Of a stretch of DNA of 39,287 bases, positions 5,864 through 33,098 are shown piece after piece (within the stretch, counting starts at the first letter, position 1; the number at the start of each line of letters is the position of its first letter). Below the pieces are notes generated by a model, which did no database searches, had not been told where the DNA came from, and saw nothing but the letters and a program-made list of their open reading frames with translations. Source of the DNA: Escherichia phage vB_EcoP_PAS61; sequence record OQ921333.1; one strand, written 5' to 3'. A program made the translations under genes and the position numbers.

Positions 5864-6448
5864 TTATTGTTTGTTTTTTTCGTTCTGGTTGATGACAAAT
5901 TCAATGTAACTTTCGATCTTTGCTTTCTCGGTTTCGGGTAACAATGCGTAGCGCGAGCGATCATAGTTGATGGTCGCAGGGTCGTGCGGGTGAATCAGTA
6001 ATTCATAGCCGTGACGCCCGAATGCGGATGCAACATTCTCCAGGGTGGAAATGGAAACGCTGACCTCATTGTTTAACAGGCGGCTGATTGTCACCTGGGC
6101 TACGCCGGATGCGCGGTGAAGTTTTCCCTGTGTTGAAAGGTCGCGGCTTTCGCTCATCCAGCGTTCCAGGTTGTGAGCCGCCAGCTGGCCAATGTCGCTT
6201 GGGCCGACAGGCTGAAAACCTTCCTGAGAAAGCGAGCGATCGATATCAAGCCAGTTACGGGGTTTATTGGCGGCAGCTTCAATTTTTCGCGCAACCTGGT
6301 CGCCGATAACCTTCTTGCCAAGAGCCCAGCGGTTTACCAGATTTGCCTGAGTTCCAAGTTTTTCTGCCATCCGCGTCTGAACACCATTGAATTCACGGTC
6401 GATCAAGTCGTTGAGATTTTGCCTGCGGACGTCCTGGATACTTTTCAT
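5864..6448 (-). CDS. Putative prophage repressor (CI-like role) with two helix-turn-helix regions; no obvious LexA-like S24 peptidase domain
   Basis: 194 aa; HTH-like segments GVQTRMAEKLGTQANLVNRW and GKLHRASGVAQVTISRLLNNE; divergent from a Cro-like gene across an operator-rich intergenic region. Confidence 0.55.
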   Translation of the reverse strand: MKSIQDVRRQNLNDLIDREFNGVQTRMAEKLGTQANLVNRWALGKKVIGDQVARKIEAAANKPRNWLDIDRSLSQEGFQPVGPSDIGQLAAHNLERWMSESRDLSTQGKLHRASGVAQVTISRLLNNEVSVSISTLENVASAFGRHGYELLIHPHDPATINYDRSRYALLPETEKAKIESYIEFVINQNEKNKQ

Positions 6449-11741: not shown

Positions 11742-12015
11742 CCTGCAACTTGCCGTCAAAGGTGAATACTTCGATGCCATGATTCGTGGAGAGAAAACGG
11801 AAGAGTATCGCTTGTGTAATGACTACTGGAATAAGCGAATTATGTTCCGCGAGTATGGCCGCCTGATTATCACAAAGGGATATCCGAAGCGCGACGATTC
11901 CAGCCGCAGAATTGATGTTCCGTATGAAGGGTATGAAATCAAGACAATCACACATCCGCACTTCGGCGATAAACCGGTAAAGGTGTACGCGATAAAGGTG
12001 AATATTGATGGCTAA
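11734..12015 (+). CDS. Small hypothetical protein (possibly ASCH-like)
   Basis: GTG start after AGGAGG RBS; weak family resemblance only. Confidence 0.4.
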   Translation: MANLQLAVKGEYFDAMIRGEKTEEYRLCNDYWNKRIMFREYGRLIITKGYPKRDDSSRRIDVPYEGYEIKTITHPHFGDKPVKVYAIKVNIDG

Positions 12016-12346
12016 ATCAGCAGCAGAGCGCAAAGCCGCTCAGAGAGCCAGACAAGCTGCATCTGGTGTGCGTAAGCTGGAAATTGTGCTTGATGCTCAG
12101 GAAATTGAAATGCTGGAGCGTAACTGTGCCACGCGTCGCCCCGGGCGTGCGCCTTACGAATTTGGTGAGTATATAGCGTTACTGATCCGCCAGGATGATG
12201 CACGCGTGCGCGGGCGTATAAAATCGATCAGCAGAAAATGTTGCGGTAAGTGCGGCGAGAGAGTTCCAGTTAATTCATGCCCGTGTAATGGTGACTCGCA
12301 ATGCTGGGTGACTAAAGGCTGGCATGAAACGAAATTAATAGTGTGA
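12008..12346 (+). CDS. Cys-rich zinc-finger protein immediately upstream of the late operon; candidate late-gene regulator/antiterminator (Q-like role)
   Basis: 112 aa; CCGKCGERVPVNSCPCNGDSQC cluster; stop codon overlaps the GTGACATGTCAC palindrome; followed by an intrinsic terminator and then the terminase genes. Confidence 0.45.
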   Translation: MAKSAAERKAAQRARQAASGVRKLEIVLDAQEIEMLERNCATRRPGRAPYEFGEYIALLIRQDDARVRGRIKSISRKCCGKCGERVPVNSCPCNGDSQCWVTKGWHETKLIV

Positions 12347-12395
12347 CATGTCACGAGTAGATTATGCATGATGAATTTGATGGGTTTTGAATACT

Positions 12396-12421
12396 GCCGC
12401 CAACTATGGCGGCTTTATTTT
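12396..12421 (+). terminator. Rho-independent terminator (GCCGCC-AACTAT-GGCGGC + TTTATTTT) between early-right and late genes (tR'-like position)
   Basis: Perfect 6-bp GC stem plus U-run. Confidence 0.6.
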
Positions 12422-12464
12422 GCATGGTACTATTACCACAACGGTAACTATTACCACGGTGGTT

Positions 12465-13061
12465 ATGATGCCTGCTGAACCTAAAACCTATAAACGCAAA
12501 TCAACGCAATTTAAGCCACTAACAGCAATGCAGGAGGCTTATTGCCAGTCATACATCAAAACGCCTGAAAACCAGACTCAGGCAGCGATTAACGCAGGGT
12601 TCTCCCCAAATACAGCGGCAGTTAAAGCCAGTGTCATGATGCGCGATGAACGCATTCAAAAACGGATTGCCGAGTTGATGGAGGAGCGCAACAAACGAAT
12701 GCGCGTCAGTGCTGATTACGTTCTCATGCGCCTGGTGGAGATCGACCAGATGGACGTGATCGACATCCTCAACGACGATGGGAGCCTTAAACCAATCCGT
12801 GAGTGGCCGAAAATCTGGCGCACTACGCTTAGTGGCTTTGATCTGTCATCGACCATCATGAACATGAACGAGGATTCGATAGAGACAATCCTCAAAAAAA
12901 TTAAATGGCCTGACAAGGTGAAGAACCTTGAGCTGATTGGTAAGCATGTTGATGTCAACGCGTTCAAAGAACGTCTGGATGTTAATGTGAATGTGACAAT
13001 TGCTGATCGCATAGCAGCAGCCAGGAAGCGACTCAAAGAACGTCAGGATGGTAATCAGTGA
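12465..13061 (+). CDS. Terminase small subunit
   Basis: Position immediately upstream of and translationally coupled to terminase large subunit; basic N-terminal region; start moved to ATG after the terminator. Confidence 0.65.
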   Translation: MMPAEPKTYKRKSTQFKPLTAMQEAYCQSYIKTPENQTQAAINAGFSPNTAAVKASVMMRDERIQKRIAELMEERNKRMRVSADYVLMRLVEIDQMDVIDILNDDGSLKPIREWPKIWRTTLSGFDLSSTIMNMNEDSIETILKKIKWPDKVKNLELIGKHVDVNAFKERLDVNVNVTIADRIAAARKRLKERQDGNQ

Positions 13062-14533
13062 CAGATACAGCGTTATCTCCTGAAGAGCAGTTGATCGAGG
13101 ATATTGCAGGGTTCACTCACGATCCGCTTGGCTATGCCCTCTATGCGTTCCCGTGGGGGGAAGAGGGGACTGAACTGGCACATGCTACCGGCCCACGTCA
13201 GTGGCAGGCTGATGCGTTCCGAGAGATACGTGATCACCTGCAGAATCCAGAGACGCGCTATCAGCCGCTTATGCTGGCACGCGCTTCTGGTCACGGTATT
13301 GGTAAATCCGCATTCATCTCAATGCTGATCAACTGGGGCATGTCCACTTGCGAGGATTGTAAGGTCGTGGTGACCGCCAACACCGACAACCAGCTACGAA
13401 CGAAGACCTGGCCGGAAATTATCAAGTGGTCGAACCTTGCTATCACGAAAGACTGGTTTACCTGTACCGCTACCGCGATGTACAGCAATGATCCTGGGCA
13501 CGACAAGCGGTGGCGAGCTGACGCAATCCCCTGGTCTGAGCACAACACTGAGGCATTCGCCGGACTACACAACGAGCGCAAACGCATCATCGTGGTATTC
13601 GATGAAGCGTCGAACATTGCGGATCTGGTGTGGGAAGTTGCTGAGGGGGCGCTAACGGACGAAGACACTGAGATTATCTGGGTGGCGTTCGGAAACCCTA
13701 CACGTAACACCGGGCGTTTCCGCGAATGTTTCCGCAAATATAAACACCGCTGGAAAACTGCGCAGATTGACAGCCGGACGGTGGAAGGCACTAACAAACA
13801 GCAGTTGCAGAAATGGGTTGATGACTACGGGGAAGACAGCGACTTCGTTAAAATCCGTGTGCGCGGCATATTCCCTGATGCATCTGAATTGCAGTTTATC
13901 CCTACCGGTCTTACTGATGAGGCAATGAAACGGGTGGTAACCGCTGCGCAGGTTGCACATGCTCCGGTGATAATCGGCGTTGACCCGGCATACTCAGGCG
14001 TTGATGACGCGGTGATATACCTGCGGCAGGGGCTGCACAGTAAGGTGCTATGGACTGGTAACAAGACCACCGACGATCTGATTATGGCGAAGCGTATCGC
14101 TGACTTTGAAGACCAGTATCAGGCTGACGCGGTGTTCATCGACTTCGGTTACGGAACCGGTTTGAAGTCAATCGGTGATGGCTGGGGACGTACATGGCAA
14201 CTTGTTCCGTTCGGCGGTGCGTCCACTGACCCGCAGATGCTTAACAAGCGTGGGGAGATGTTCAACTCATGTAAGACATGGCTGAGGCTGGGCGGCATGC
14301 TGGATGACCAGGAAACTGCAGACGACCTGTCAGCGGCAGAGTACAAAGTTCGTGTGGACGGTAAAATCGTTATCGAACCGAAGGAAGATATCAAGGAGCG
14401 GCTTGGGCGTTCGCCGGGTAAAGGCGATGCGCTACTGCTGACGTTTGCTTTCCCTGTGTCGAAGCGTCTGCGAATTCCTGGGCAGCAGAACCAGCAAGGC
14501 AAGGCCATCACAGATTATGACCCGTATGCTTAA
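13058..14533 (+). CDS. Terminase large subunit
   Basis: 491 aa; Walker A-like ARASGHGIGKS; GTG start overlapping terS stop. Confidence 0.9.
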   Translation: MTDTALSPEEQLIEDIAGFTHDPLGYALYAFPWGEEGTELAHATGPRQWQADAFREIRDHLQNPETRYQPLMLARASGHGIGKSAFISMLINWGMSTCEDCKVVVTANTDNQLRTKTWPEIIKWSNLAITKDWFTCTATAMYSNDPGHDKRWRADAIPWSEHNTEAFAGLHNERKRIIVVFDEASNIADLVWEVAEGALTDEDTEIIWVAFGNPTRNTGRFRECFRKYKHRWKTAQIDSRTVEGTNKQQLQKWVDDYGEDSDFVKIRVRGIFPDASELQFIPTGLTDEAMKRVVTAAQVAHAPVIIGVDPAYSGVDDAVIYLRQGLHSKVLWTGNKTTDDLIMAKRIADFEDQYQADAVFIDFGYGTGLKSIGDGWGRTWQLVPFGGASTDPQMLNKRGEMFNSCKTWLRLGGMLDDQETADDLSAAEYKVRVDGKIVIEPKEDIKERLGRSPGKGDALLLTFAFPVSKRLRIPGQQNQQGKAITDYDPYA

Positions 14534-14584
14534 TCCGCTGGTGGGGATAATGTCGTTGATATCCTCTGATGAGGATAAAACAAA

Positions 14585-14610
14585 GCCAGCTCATCGGCTG
14601 GCTGTTTGTG
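14585..14610. terminator. Bidirectional terminator-like hairpin (GCCAGC-TCATCG-GCTGGC) with U-rich flanks, between terminase large subunit and the antisense moron
   Basis: Stem-loop read directly; adjacent to GTGACATGTCAC palindrome at 14608-14619. Confidence 0.45.
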
Positions 14611-14623
14611 ACATGTCACGGTG

Positions 14624-15046
14624 TTAGAAGGTTATTTTATCGAATGCGGCGTTGATTGCCTTGGCGTCCTGCTCAGCACCAACCACATCAAGTAAAGATC
14701 TTTTACTAAGCACTTCAGCCAGGCATTGTAACTTCATGTTGTATAAGTTTTCGCGCATGTAATCATCATCACTTTTTTCTTTGGCGTATACAGCGCGAGA
14801 AATATCAAACACATTGCCTTTTTCCATTTCAGTTTTCTGCGCTGAAATCCAGTCATGGCAAGTAACTCCTATTCCATGGTCATCGCTAAGCGTTAACCCG
14901 GCAAGTCGCTCACCTGGAATTGCTTCATAAAGCATTTCATTTCCTGCAAAAACACCATAAAAAATTGAGTCATCACCCTGAACAATGCGTACATATTTGC
15001 ACGGCCATTCATTTAGATATTTAGCTAGCATGTCGGCTGTTTTCAT
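14624..15046 (-). CDS. Moron gene of unknown function (antisense to the late operon)
   Basis: 140 aa ORF with balanced composition on the opposite strand between terminase and portal, downstream of a tRNA and an intrinsic terminator. Confidence 0.55.
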   Translation of the reverse strand: MKTADMLAKYLNEWPCKYVRIVQGDDSIFYGVFAGNEMLYEAIPGERLAGLTLSDDHGIGVTCHDWISAQKTEMEKGNVFDISRAVYAKEKSDDDYMRENLYNMKLQCLAEVLSKRSLLDVVGAEQDAKAINAAFDKITF

Positions 15047-15056
15047 GATCTCACTT

Positions 15057-15081
15057 TAAAAAAATGCCCGGCGAACCGGGC
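15057..15081 (-). terminator. Rho-independent terminator (GCCCGG-CGAA-CCGGGC followed by U7 on the minus strand) downstream of the tRNA
   Basis: Perfect stem with 7-nt U-run on minus strand. Confidence 0.55.
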
Positions 15082-15211
15082 TGTACTGGTTTACAGCATG
15101 AAGTCATCGCAATGGCGTCCTGCTGTAAAAAGGGCGGTGATAGTTCTTCAAGGGAAACCATCACCGCCAAGCCCCTGGAACTTCTGGCATCACGGTCCTT
15201 AGGCGTGATTC

Positions 15212-15288
15212 TGGCGTGGCATGCAGGATTCGAACCTGCGACCAACCGCTTAGAAGGCGGTTGCTCTGTCCGACTGAGCTAATGCCAC
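15212..15288 (-). tRNA. tRNA-Arg (anticodon UCU), phage-encoded
   Basis: Hand-folded cloverleaf: acceptor GTGGCAT/ATGCCAC, D-stem GCTC/GAGC, anticodon stem ACCGC/GCGGT with loop CTTCTAA, T-arm GCAGG-TTCGAAT-CCTGC, discriminator G and encoded CCA. Confidence 0.85.
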
Positions 15289-15610
15289 AACGCTGAGAGC
15301 ACTTAGCCTGTTAAGGCGCCACACTTTGTCGCGGCTCCATAAATGCTCTCATCGTTGTACCCTCGTCTCTTCCGAGGCGTCACACCGAATCGCCGGGATG
15401 GTGAATCCCCGTGCGCGGAATAAAACCGCTCGACTTGCACATTCCGGCTACCTGGTTCGTTTGCCCGAGCAAGGGAGGGTGCCCCTTAAACGTATCCAGA
15501 CCGCTATCGGCGCATGTGCCATACGCCGTACTGCTCAAAATAAAAGCTCACTCCACCTGTTTAATTTAACGACAAGCCAGTCAGGTTAGTAACCAGAATG
15601 AGCTCTTTAG

Positions 15611-15677
15611 TTACCTGAAAGGTAATAATTCACGCGTTAAATGTCAACCTTCTACGATAAATAAATCATATGTGGTT
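15611..15677. promoter_or_regulatory. Regulatory region upstream of the portal module: TTACCTGAAAGGTAA (15611-15625), TTGACA on minus strand (15647-15642), CATATGTGGTT (15667-15677)
   Basis: Motifs read directly. Confidence 0.4.
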
Positions 15678-15936: not shown

Positions 15937-18144
15937 ATGGCGGAAACAACTAAAGAGCGATTGAACAAACAGTTCGCACAACTTGAAAGCGAGCGTCAGT
16001 CGTTCGAGCCGCACTGGCGCGAGTTGAGTGATTACATCAACCCGCGTGGTTCCCGCTTTCTGACTTCTGAGGTCAACCGTAACGATCGACGCAATACACG
16101 CATTATTGATTCGACCGGGACTATGGCGGCGCGCACTCTCGCCAGCGGCATGATGTCAGGCATCACAAGCCCTGCGCGTCCGTGGTTTCGCCTGGCTACG
16201 CCAGATCCTGAAATGATGGATTATGGTCCTGTTAAGTTGTGGCTCGAGGCGGTGCAGAACCGCATGAACGATATGTTCAATAAGTCGAATCTCTACCAGT
16301 CTCTTCCGCAGTTATACGGAAGCCTCGGCACATACAGCACTGGTGCAATGGCGGTGCTGGAGGATGACGAGGACATCATTCGCACAATGCCATTCCCGAT
16401 AGGCAGTTACTACCTGGCTAACTCACCTCGTGGCAGTGTGGACACCTGTTTTCGCAAGTTCTCTATGACTGTTCGTCAGCTTGTTCAGGAGTTCGGGCTA
16501 AATAACGTCAGCGAATCCGTAAAAAGCATGTGGGAAAGCGGCACCTACGAGAAGTGGATTGACGTGATGCATTCGGTTTACCCGAACATTGACCGCGATA
16601 CATTGAAGCTGGATAGCAAGAACAAGCCATTCAAATCGGTTTATTACGAGGTTGGTGGCGATAACGACAAGTTGTTGCGTGAGTCCGGATTCACAAGCCC
16701 TGCGCGTCCGTGGTTTCGCCTGGCTACGCCAGATCCTGAAATGATGGATTATGGTCCTGTTAAGTTGTGGCTCGAGGCGGTGCAGAACCGCATGAACGAT
16801 ATGTTCAATAAGTCGAATCTCTACCAGTCTCTTCCGCAGTTATACGGAAGCCTCGGCACATACAGCACTGGTGCAATGGCGGTGCTGGAGGATGACGAGG
16901 ACATCATTCGCACAATGCCATTCCCGATAGGCAGTTACTACCTGGCTAACTCACCTCGTGGCAGTGTGGACACCTGTTTTCGCAAGTTCTCTATGACTGT
17001 TCGTCAGCTTGTTCAGGAGTTCGGGCTAAATAACGTCAGCGAATCCGTAAAAAGCATGTGGGAAAGCGGCACCTACGAGAAGTGGATTGACGTGATGCAT
17101 TCGGTTTACCCGAACATTGACCGCGATACATTGAAGCTGGATAGCAAGAACAAGCCATTCAAATCGGTTTATTACGAGGTTGGTGGCGATAACGACAAGT
17201 TGTTGCGTGAGTCCGGATTTGATGAGTTTCCAATTATGGCTCCGCGCTGGGAAGTTAATGGCGAAGATGTTTATGGATCATCATGCCCGGGTATGCTGGC
17301 GCTTGGACCTGTTAAGGCATTGCAGCTTCTCCAGAAGCGCAAGTCGCAGTTGATTGATAAAGCCACCAATCCGCCGATGGTTGCTCCGACTTCCCTCAAG
17401 AATCAGCGCGCCTCCCTTCTTCCTGGCGACATCACGTATATCGATCAGATTACTGGTCAGGATGGTTTCAGGCCTGCTTATCTGGTTAACCCCAGTACAG
17501 CAGATCTGGTAGCAGACATTCAGGACACTCGTCAAATCATTAACAGCGCCTACTTTGTCGATCTGTTCATGATGTTGCAGAACATCAATACCCGCTCGAT
17601 GCCTGTTGAAGCGGTGATCGAAATGAAAGAAGAAAAACTTCTGATGTTGGGGCCGGTTCTGGAGCGTCTGAACGACGAATGTCTTAACCCTCTCATTGAC
17701 CGCGCTTTCTCGATGATGGTGCGTAAAAACATGCTGCCGCCACCGCCTGACGCGATGGAAGGTATGCCCCTGAAGGTCGAATACATTTCCGTCATGGCTC
17801 AGGCGCAGAAGTCTATCGGCCTGTCCAGTCTGGCGTCCACGGTTAACTTCATTGGTCAACTTGCGCAAGCGAAACCAGAAGCTCTCGACAAACTCAACGT
17901 TGATCAGGCGATCGATGCATTCGCTGATATGTCCGGAGTGTCTCCAACCGTCATTGTTCCGCAGGAACAGGTTGAGCAGGCTCGCCAGCAACGGGCACAG
18001 CAACAACAGCAGCAACAAATGATGGCGATGGGGATGGCGGCGGCACAGGGTGCCAAGACGCTAAGCGAAGCTAAAACTTCGGATCCGAGTGTTTTGTCAG
18101 CTATGGCGAATGCAGTTAGTGGTCAGGGTGGGCAATCACAATGA
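15937..18144 (+). CDS. Portal (head-to-tail connector) protein, T7 gp8-like, carrying an internal in-frame 176-codon tandem duplication
   Basis: 735 aa; Gln-rich C-terminus recalls T7 gp8; position after terminase; internal duplicated segment TSPARPWF...LLRESGF. Confidence 0.8.
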   Translation: MAETTKERLNKQFAQLESERQSFEPHWRELSDYINPRGSRFLTSEVNRNDRRNTRIIDSTGTMAARTLASGMMSGITSPARPWFRLATPDPEMMDYGPVKLWLEAVQNRMNDMFNKSNLYQSLPQLYGSLGTYSTGAMAVLEDDEDIIRTMPFPIGSYYLANSPRGSVDTCFRKFSMTVRQLVQEFGLNNVSESVKSMWESGTYEKWIDVMHSVYPNIDRDTLKLDSKNKPFKSVYYEVGGDNDKLLRESGFTSPARPWFRLATPDPEMMDYGPVKLWLEAVQNRMNDMFNKSNLYQSLPQLYGSLGTYSTGAMAVLEDDEDIIRTMPFPIGSYYLANSPRGSVDTCFRKFSMTVRQLVQEFGLNNVSESVKSMWESGTYEKWIDVMHSVYPNIDRDTLKLDSKNKPFKSVYYEVGGDNDKLLRESGFDEFPIMAPRWEVNGEDVYGSSCPGMLALGPVKALQLLQKRKSQLIDKATNPPMVAPTSLKNQRASLLPGDITYIDQITGQDGFRPAYLVNPSTADLVADIQDTRQIINSAYFVDLFMMLQNINTRSMPVEAVIEMKEEKLLMLGPVLERLNDECLNPLIDRAFSMMVRKNMLPPPPDAMEGMPLKVEYISVMAQAQKSIGLSSLASTVNFIGQLAQAKPEALDKLNVDQAIDAFADMSGVSPTVIVPQEQVEQARQQRAQQQQQQQMMAMGMAAAQGAKTLSEAKTSDPSVLSAMANAVSGQGGQSQ
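16163..17218 (+). repeat. Perfect tandem direct duplication, 2 x 528 bp (16163-16690 and 16691-17218), inside the portal gene
   Basis: Nucleotide-level identity read across both copies; the ORF-track translation repeats the same 176 aa. Confidence 0.9.
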
Positions 18145-18437
18145 CAGATTACGAAGACGATCAACTGAAAGAAGAAAACGCCCGTAAGCAACGTGACATG
18201 GCACAGCGTGAAATTGATGACATTCGCTTTGTCATGAGCAGTGAACAGGGGCGTCGCGTTGTCTGGTCGGTGCTGGAGAAAGGCCGTGTGTTTTCCGCTA
18301 TCTCACCGATGGACGCTATGGCAATGGCATTTAATGAGGGGCAACGCAATCTGGCGCTGGAACTGTTTCAGCGCGTTATGGCGCATTGCCCTGAACAGTA
18401 TTTGAAGATGGCCAAAGAGGCCAGTGAACAGGAGTGA
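18141..18437 (+). CDS. Hypothetical protein (between portal and scaffold)
   Basis: 98 aa ORF; ATGA overlap with portal stop. Confidence 0.5.
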   Translation: MTDYEDDQLKEENARKQRDMAQREIDDIRFVMSSEQGRRVVWSVLEKGRVFSAISPMDAMAMAFNEGQRNLALELFQRVMAHCPEQYLKMAKEASEQE

Positions 18438-32666: not shown

Positions 32667-32686
32667 CGTGAGCGTGACATGTCACA

Positions 32687-32712
32687 GGCCGCTTTCGCGG
32701 CCTTTAAATTTA
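32687..32712 (+). terminator. Rho-independent terminator (GGCCGC-TTTC-GCGGCC + U-rich tail) ending the injection operon
   Basis: Perfect 6-bp GC stem plus U-run; GTGACATGTCAC palindrome directly upstream. Confidence 0.6.
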
Positions 32713-32967
32713 CCGGGTTTGTTTTCGTAATTGTTCGGCACAATAGTCGAGATGTGTTTGCAGATCCTGCATAGACATCTGTGAGCTGGTGACGTAGTTA
32801 ATCAGTGCAGTCAGTTCGGCAAGTGGGCCATCGACATTAAATCCATCCTTATCGAGATCCCGGAGTAATTTCATCAAGTGCGATCCATCCACCAGTGACC
32901 TGACGCCTCCCGGCGTGTGAATCCTTTCGGTAAATCCGTCTTCCAGTGGATAGTGATACTGCTGCAT
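32710..32967 (-). CDS. Moron gene of unknown function (85 aa) with its own promoter/operator
   Basis: Start moved to internal ATG (MQQYHYPLEDG) with GGAG RBS; upstream 41 codons of the track ORF run through AT-rich regulatory sequence. Confidence 0.5.
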   Translation of the reverse strand: MQQYHYPLEDGFTERIHTPGGVRSLVDGSHLMKLLRDLDKDGFNVDGPLAELTALINYVTSSQMSMQDLQTHLDYCAEQLRKQTR

Positions 32968-33004
32968 CTTATCTTCTCCATGCAATAACTGTATATTTAT
33001 ACAG

Positions 33005-33098
33005 TAGCAAATAATTTGTTTGCTATCCAGCACGTTTTGCAAATTACCAGAAAGGTAATATCTATTCTTATTCACAGTCTTTCTATCCATATGTGGTT
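33005..33098. promoter_or_regulatory. Regulatory region between moron and tailspike: perfect palindrome TAGCAAA-N7-TTTGCTA (33005-33025), TTACCAGAAAGGTAA (33044-33058), CATATGTGGTT (33088-33098)
   Basis: Motifs read directly. Confidence 0.45.

Follow-up and report, generated by a model that had tools for sequence, protein, structure and literature searches.

ORF140 is an open reading frame of Escherichia phage vB_EcoP_PAS61 (sequence record OQ921333.1), whose 39,287 nucleotides (nt) we analyzed in full and refer to as the window. It lies between the genes terL and portal and reads antisense to these + strand late genes. We find that ORF140 is a functional accessory gene that is under purifying selection and is exchanged horizontally. 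We also consider it a candidate counter-defense gene, because other genes found in its position belong to the Acb4 and Tad2 families and because members of the ORF140 family lie directly before Acb4 genes in three genera; we put the probability of this assignment at about 0.45. The window itself, which also carries recT, represents the genome or prophage of a temperate podophage of the phiV10/epsilon15 type (Uetakevirus).

ORF140 Is a Genuine, Exchanged Gene

An initial annotation had reported an antisense frame of 140 amino acids (aa) between terminase and portal, and this is what we find: the frame begins with an ATG on the − strand, with both terL and portal on the + strand (Table 1). Comparison of five alleles, which differ at up to 94 of 420 nt and whose synonymous divergence (dS) reaches 0.9, gave ratios of nonsynonymous to synonymous divergence (dN/dS) of 0.20–0.31 in nine of ten pairs and of 0.66 in one close pair. 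Each of the five alternative frames is interrupted by 5–21 stop codons. The product matches PHROG 4846, a family of unknown function, from end to end (E = 3.1e-87; residues 1–140 on profile positions 1–140 of 140), and its 111 database homologues, all named "hypothetical protein," come from Escherichia coli, Salmonella, Citrobacter, Klebsiella, Enterobacter, and Hafnia. The identical protein was present on 662 contigs. The family is nevertheless a narrow one: among 1.84 billion representatives, an exhaustive search by profile identified just 28 clusters, and none of them has a known domain. In prophages of E. coli, Salmonella, Citrobacter, Klebsiella, and Enterobacter the gene is kept, always in the same slot; the initial annotation had named a lack of such conservation among the findings that would count against its proposal.

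The guanine-plus-cytosine (GC) content of ORF140 is 40.9%, and 36% at third codon positions (GC3). Both values are far below those of terL (54% and 60%, respectively), and we therefore conclude that the gene was horizontally acquired. Recombination has also taken place within it: between the window and one other allele (L018), dS is 0.92 in the N-terminal half and 0 in the C-terminal half. Only one of the five arginine codons is AGA, and thus the transfer RNA (tRNA) for arginine that is encoded nearby is not needed for reading the gene. A literature search by accession, PHROG identifier, and peptide strings yielded nothing on the ORF140 family. The family is unannotated; small accessory genes located in the anti-defense hot spots of phages are well known as a kind.

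A Cassette Slot Shared with Immune-Signal Sponges

We examined the surroundings of ORF140-family genes in E. coli Ec55 and UID2309220026, in Salmonella, in two Klebsiella lineages, in Enterobacter, and in Hafnia. In every one of these contexts the gene is antisense and lies between terL and a 68-aa gene followed by portal. Flanking homology between the window and its relatives breaks off at the stop codon (14626) and returns at the start codon and ribosome-binding site (RBS; 15042/15046). As judged from these breakpoints, the slot is a cassette position whose contents are exchanged precisely between the start and stop codons.

The other occupants of the slot, which holds one to three cargo genes, bear directly on the function of ORF140. 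In phiV10 (phiV10p03) and epsilon15 (epsilon15p50) the slot holds a PF13876 gene (E = 6e-35), and in one Logan contig and in E. coli PD23 and ECSC054 it holds a stand-alone, 98-aa, Tad2-like gene (PF11195). E. coli MB31 has instead a 61-aa gene that corresponds to the C-terminal third of ORF140, a helical hairpin. In other prophages ORF140 or a homologue is followed by PF13876: in tandem in E. coli UID2309220026, after an 11-nt gap in Enterobacter, and after a 7-nt gap in Klebsiella. It has been established experimentally that PF13876 proteins, the Acb4 family, are tetrameric sponges for the cyclic nucleotides of the cyclic-oligonucleotide-based antiphage signaling system (CBASS) and that PF11195 proteins (Tad2) are sponges for Thoeris signals (10.1101/2024.12.30.630793, 10.1101/2025.07.12.664507). 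Sponge genes occur in clusters and as fusions, and new sponges can be found among the partners of Tad2 and Acb4, Sequestin being an example (10.1101/2025.07.12.664507). We note that in P22-like phages, too, a Tad2-like gene and a gene of the Acb4 family are neighbors.

In a survey of 5,426 complete E. coli genomes, the flanks of the slot were present in approximately 521, ORF140 in 113–115, the PF13876 (Acb4) allele together with the flanks in 143, and the Tad2 allele in 3. ORF140 is, then, a variably present extra gene of atypical base composition (GC 40.9% versus 54% for terL) at a fixed point between conserved genes, as a moron would be, and it is co-located with established anti-defense genes (Acb4 and Tad2), as a member of an anti-defense cluster would be. 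The survey also contained, in a single genome, that of E. coli PF9285, a chimera in which the N-terminal domain of ORF140 (residues 1–73) is joined in frame to a Tad2-like domain (PF11195, E = 1e-23; L010 3203–3709, equivalent to NZ_CP038791.1 1508891–1509397). It is a singleton recombinant of two common alleles of the slot.

Behind the cargo lies a conserved 49-nt end element (14578–14626), which in two-cargo slots is present after each cargo gene. The stem of its hairpin covaries (GCCAGC/GCUGGC versus GCCCGC/GCGGGC), and the palindrome GTGACATGTCAC beside the terminator is invariant from E. coli to Hafnia; the initial annotation had correctly placed the end of the frame beside a palindrome and terminator (14608–14619 and 14584–14603, respectively, in our analysis). 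The palindrome occurs elsewhere in the window as well. There are three exact copies (12343–12354, 14608–14619, and 32674–32685), where about 0.002 would be expected, and one copy with a single mismatch (18193–18204). Each of the exact copies stands at a gene boundary, and two adjoin terminator hairpins behind antisense genes. The palindrome may be a protein-binding or recombination site.

A Predicted Helical Hairpin with Exchangeable Partners

An AlphaFold2 model of ORF140 built on an alignment of 54 sequences reached a mean predicted local distance difference test (pLDDT) score of 83.9; an earlier model, from 31 sequences, was too weak to use (pLDDT 69.5). The predicted fold consists of an N-terminal α/β domain (residues 1–75; helix 3–10, strands 18–23, 29–33, and 36–42, and helix 63–75), a disordered linker (76–92), and a C-terminal helical hairpin (93–137; helices 93–114 and 121–137). 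Most of the invariant residues of the family fall in the hairpin (Y102, K105, L106, C108, L109, and the AINAAFDKITF segment). Meanwhile, the N-terminal domains of the E. coli and Enterobacter types can be aligned but are only about 45% identical, and in the Hafnia homologue an unrelated N-terminal domain is joined to the same hairpin. Some members have an added C-terminal module with the signature KWLxxNxHPH, and one 258-aa protein strings four modules together. From these comparisons the hairpin is evidently the conserved core, which can exist alone as a 61-aa protein, and the N-terminal domain a swappable module.

Homology searches gave little purchase on function. Scans of ORF140 against Pfam (E ≤ 1) and NCBIfam returned nothing, and a PADLOC-DB scan of ORF140 and two homologues returned no family at E ≤ 1. 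A 201-aa homologue (P0042) had one weak PADLOC match to Cas3 (E = 2.9e-4, 17.3 bits), which we do not interpret. A profile search of PDB sequences produced only a chance match (E = 0.59), and the best Foldseek matches in BFVD (E = 1e-3) were to unnamed proteins only.

ORF140 is acidic (isoelectric point 4.8) and has neither a membrane segment (maximum Kyte–Doolittle value 0.88) nor a signal peptide, and the conserved polar residues of the family are mostly acidic. Sponges of the known kind are short homo-oligomers that bind a nucleotide signal in basic pockets at the interfaces between protomers. Membership of ORF140 in this class of immune-signal sponges is disfavored by its isoelectric point and acidic conserved residues, as far as can be judged from a model of the monomer only.

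A Putative Repressor-Controlled Unit with a Structured Leader

The initial annotation had joined ORF140 and the tRNA into a small antisense island. The island exists, but it is larger than was thought, extending from approximately 14578 to 15647 and including a conserved leader RNA, and the tRNA is an optional insert that is missing from the epsilon15, Enterobacter, and Hafnia relatives. A consensus scan found no σ70-type promoter between 14300 and 16000, and a leaderless-mRNA promoter overlapping the terminator was rejected by eye because it has no −35 element. Of the adjacent promoter and terminator that a moron would have as its own, ORF140 has only the terminator (14603–14584). Within the island a single promoter-like element is conserved (TTGACA–17–TACCTT), and it lies 570 nt upstream of the gene. 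Epsilon15 and an Enterobacter prophage retain both of its hexamers and the distance of 17 nt between them, whereas the sequence of the spacer differs, as read by eye across the three genera.

The −10 hexamer of this candidate promoter is overlapped by a palindrome of the form TTACC–N5–GGTAA, of which the window contains eight exact copies and 11 with at most one mismatch, as against 0.67 expected with at most one mismatch. Pairs of copies flank the HTH_3 gene on both sides, and other copies precede further transcription units. In the GenBank record of epsilon15 the homologous site is labeled "repressor, lysogeny." This distribution points to a regulon in the style of P1, in which units controlled by the repressor are dispersed. 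Because the motif lies over the −10 hexamer and around the HTH_3 gene, and because of the epsilon15 annotation, the ORF140 unit looks like one of several operons that are silenced by the prophage repressor, as in P1.

Downstream of the promoter is the structured leader, for which RNAalifold on five sequences predicted 45 pairs, eight of them with compensatory changes. No Rfam family matched it. It is homologous to the leader of the ban operon of P1 (the segment between tRNA-Ile and ban) and also to the region just 3′ of the cI-like repressor genes of the lambdoid phages mEp460 and Stx2c/Stx2k. In an Enterobacter ludwigii prophage (L005, 5087–6000), about 900 nt of noncoding sequence without a tRNA separate the same promoter and operator from the first cargo gene, and part of the extra sequence is common to the lambdoid-phage version of the leader, which hints that the RNA element is larger than the leader seen in the window.

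Between the leader and ORF140 stand three hairpins. The one just before the cargo is kept with compensatory changes (GCCCAC–TTCG–GTGGGC in epsilon15), and its run of T residues ends at 15058, leaving 11 nt before the ATG at 15046; the initial annotation was right in placing the start beside a terminator and was off by 2 nt in giving the distance as 13. Since two of the three hairpins are terminator-like, the cargo would be made only by read-through. It is our speculation that the leader RNA promotes this read-through. A search of the literature found no transcriptome of a Uetakevirus.

Two further genes of the window stand near copies of the operator or of the 12-nt palindrome. One (32710–33090, − strand) is a second antisense gene, located among the tail genes, which matches PHROG 450 and, weakly, the anti-repressor family PHROG 1760. 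A copy of the operator (33044) lies upstream of its likely true start, and GTGACATGTCAC and a terminator lie behind it. It may encode a repressor-controlled antirepressor. The other (12005–12346, + strand) lies directly before terS and encodes a protein of 113 aa that has a cysteine-rich C-terminus and belongs to PHROG 536 ("transcriptional regulator"); its stop codon overlaps a copy of GTGACATGTCAC. Its product is a candidate late-gene regulator.

Table 1. Positions of ORF140, of the elements around it, and of other features in the window
Feature	Position	Strand	Remarks
Integrase	295–1551
HTH repressor-like gene	5864–6448		HTH_3; HTH, helix-turn-helix
terS	12387–13061
terL	13058–14533	+
Cassette end, conserved	14578–14626		49 nt; terminator hairpin, palindrome, and cargo stop codon
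Terminator hairpin	14603–14584	−	3′ of ORF140; T-rich tail
Perfect palindrome GTGACATGTCAC	14608–14619		12 nt; directly after the ORF140 stop codon, end of ORF140 4 nt away
ORF140 coding sequence	14624–15046	−	ATG start; stop codon 14624–14626; 140 aa; PHROG 4846
Short 5′ untranslated region of ORF140	15047–15057	−	Shine–Dalgarno-like AAAGTGAG; AAGGTGAG in relatives (read from sequence)
Terminator-like hairpin immediately 5′ of ORF140	15081–15058	−	GCCCGG–TTCG–CCGGGC stem-loop (15081–15066) and T7
Hairpin between the two terminator-like hairpins	15129–15090	−	inverted repeat with 18-nt arms; kept across genera
Terminator-like hairpin 3′ of tRNA-Arg	15168–15133	−	14 pairs
tRNA-Arg	15212–15288	−	anticodon UCU (tct); Rfam 73 bits
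Structured leader RNA, conserved	~15345–15530	−	from homology and RNAalifold
Candidate promoter	15647–15642, 15624–15619	−	TTGACA, 17-nt spacer, TACCTT
Operator-like palindrome	15611–15625		TTACC–N5–GGTAA; overlaps −10 of candidate promoter
Portal	15937–18144	+	head and tail genes downstream
TTACC–N5–GGTAA, exact 15-nt sites	5730, 5792, 6504, 8835, 8897, 12433, 15611, 33044
TTACC–N5–GGTAA, one mismatch	238, 6552, 12451

Possible Defects Particular to This Copy

The copy of ORF140 in the window differs from its relatives in its upstream region. Its 5′ untranslated region has a 33-nt deletion, at the 15082/15083 junction, whereas all of the relatives examined carry GCCACGGAAGGCATAACTCATTGCTTCCAGTTC; the deleted 33 nt form a small hairpin in phiV10, Ec55, HEMP4, epsilon15, and Enterobacter. 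In addition, its Shine–Dalgarno sequence, AAAGTGAG, is weaker than the AAGGTGAG of the relatives as a result of a G-to-A change (AAGGTG to AAAGTG).

The portal gene of the window is itself unusual. Within 16155–17219, a segment of 528 nt (176 aa) is duplicated in tandem and in frame; its two copies (16155–16691 and 16683–17219) differ only at three of their first eight aligned bases, on the margin of the repeat. The inferred protein is 735 aa long, in contrast to 559 aa in all relatives. The duplication is either an assembly artifact or a recent event that probably cripples the phage. The phage copy represented by the window may be defective, or its sequence may contain assembly artifacts.

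Weighing the Explanations

We read ORF140 as the cargo of a leftward unit situated between terL and portal in prophages of the phiV10/epsilon15 type and made up, in order, of a repressor-type operator and promoter, a structured leader RNA of about 300 nt, an optional tRNA-Arg, terminator hairpins, the cargo, and a terminator with the palindrome. If ORF140 is a counter-defense gene, the protein would be produced when the prophage repressor is absent, that is, upon infection or induction and probably early in the lytic cycle, and its synthesis would require RNA polymerase to read through the upstream hairpins. Its most likely mode of action would be stoichiometric binding and neutralization of a component of host immunity. 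Given that acidic residues predominate among the conserved polar ones, its target seems more likely to be a protein than a nucleotide signal. A broader proposition, which we hold to be doubtful, is that PHROG 4846 represents a previously unrecognized modular counter-defense family of Enterobacterales prophages, built on a 45-aa hairpin that would be functional alone (61 aa) and would accept interchangeable N- and C-terminal modules so as to block one or several of the host's immune systems, and that it is expressed from a repressor-controlled unit whose leader RNA, common to P1 and lambdoid phages, would enable passage through the terminators.

Several considerations weigh against assigning ORF140 to counter-defense. 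The argument is one of guilt by association, and accessory slots house unrelated genes too. ORF140 is not a cryptic Tad2 or Acb4 protein, as it has no match to PF11195 or PF13876 in Pfam and hhalign gave probabilities of 1.8% and 0.4%, respectively; nor is its hairpin a Sequestin (no match to PF21825, and an hhalign probability of 0.4% with 16 published Sequestin sequences). The acidic conserved polar residues of ORF140 contrast with the basic pockets of known sponges. The chimera with Tad2, which might have been taken as strong fusion evidence, we have downgraded, as it was found in only one of the genomes surveyed and shows only that cargo genes recombine. As for expression, operator binding, promoter activity, and read-through are all predictions, and the operator may instead serve a rightward promoter for gp3 and portal. 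Finally, the deletion and the weaker Shine–Dalgarno sequence may cause this particular copy to be poorly expressed.

The initial annotation had taken ORF140 for lysogeny-expressed cargo and had listed superinfection exclusion, anti-defense, a toxin, or a virulence factor as possible functions. That the gene is accessory and horizontally exchanged is upheld by its GC content and by the swaps in the slot, and among the listed functions the context of the slot favors anti-defense. The sequence does not support expression in lysogens. A classical moron would be expressed from the repressed prophage to the benefit of the lysogen, by superinfection exclusion, by defense against other phages, or through fitness or virulence. 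Consistent with this, ORF140 is low in GC, dispensable, and followed by its own terminator, it is very common in prophages of clinical E. coli, including ST131-type strains, and units containing prophage tRNAs can be constitutive, and some low expression could arise by leaky read-through. However, no promoter adjoins the gene, terminator-like hairpins stand directly upstream, and a repressor-type operator overlaps the conserved promoter of the unit. Moreover, the slot-mates are counter-defense rather than defense genes, there is no PADLOC match, and the protein lacks the membrane segment or signal peptide of many exclusion proteins. We therefore judge the moron explanation to be unlikely. We think it similarly improbable that ORF140 has an accessory role internal to the phage, for example by modulating the transcription, translation, or metabolism of the host or by working as a small regulator or adaptor with the leader RNA or the tRNA unit, the hairpin being a module for dimerization or docking. 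A conserved hairpin with interchangeable N-terminal domains would suit such a role, as would the constant company of the leader-RNA unit and the lack of resemblance to any known anti-defense fold; yet Acb4 or Tad2 freely takes the place of ORF140, or the gene is missing altogether, and so it is not needed for the function of the unit itself, and its family is co-operonic with Acb4 in three genera.

The remaining explanations carry far less weight. A small, uncharacterized gene in a mobile slot could encode a toxin, an abortive-infection effector, or the remnant of a toxin–antitoxin pair, but where ORF140 stands alone it has no partner, no toxin or antitoxin domain was matched, and an acidic, soluble protein has been kept intact in hundreds of genomes, all of which makes this very improbable. 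Least credible of all is a chance frame or a decaying pseudogene. The weakened Shine–Dalgarno sequence and the upstream deletion of the window copy would fit with decay, and the portal duplication suggests that the element as a whole is possibly defective; against this stand dN/dS values of 0.2–0.3 at dS of up to 0.9, a frame that is intact across five genera, and the closure of the alternative frames.

Significance

The slot is present in roughly one-tenth of complete E. coli genomes, and ORF140 in about one-fifth of these, pandemic clinical lineages included. Two immune-signal sponges, both proven by experiment, are the other occupants of the slot; ORF140, the version of it that consists of the hairpin alone, and the other unnamed slot genes therefore constitute a short, well-defined list of candidates for new counter-defense functions in an easily manipulated host. 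The start-to-stop cassette, with its common terminator and RBS pad and its 49-nt end, shows how phages exchange such genes, and the putative repressor-controlled unit of leader RNA, tRNA, and cargo provides a model, open to testing, of the way in which temperate phages time the expression of counter-defense.

Comparison with Known Systems

The closest counterpart of ORF140 by position is Acb4 (anti-CBASS 4; phiV10p03, epsilon15p50, and Sf6 gp66; Phage_gp49_66), which occupies the identical place in the cassette, between the same upstream terminator and RBS pad and the same 49-nt end. Acb4 is also of similar size (123 aa), is low in GC, and is often directly adjacent to genes of the ORF140 family, and the order of secondary-structure elements predicted for ORF140 (helix, three strands, helices) is also that of Acb4. 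Tad2 (Thoeris anti-defense 2; DUF2829) is likewise an alternative occupant of the slot and is found in one chimera with the N-terminal domain of ORF140; however, it shows no homology to ORF140 (hhalign 1.8%), and the chimera is a singleton recombinant that does not represent an established family of fusions. Sequestin is a short helical sponge that came to light via fusions with Tad2 and Acb4; it resembles the hairpin module of ORF140 in being a stand-alone helical protein (about 61 aa in the case of ORF140) in the company of Acb4 and Tad2, but the two are unlike in sequence (no Pfam match; hhalign 0.4%).

Morons of lambdoid phages, in the sense of Hendrix and Juhala, are additional genes, each equipped with a promoter and a terminator of its own, that are expressed from the prophage. 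ORF140 is like them in being a dispensable addition of atypical composition that is flanked by conserved late genes and followed by a terminator. Unlike them, it lacks a promoter of its own and lies behind terminators, and the promoter of its unit has a repressor-type operator, an arrangement from which expression in the prophage is not expected.

The ban operon of phage P1 is an early unit under the control of C1 that carries tRNAs together with accessory genes. Its operator sequence and its cargo differ from those of the ORF140 unit. The two units nonetheless share homology over part of the leader, what appears in the ORF140 unit to be the same kind of control by a repressor and operator, and a mixture of tRNA and accessory genes.
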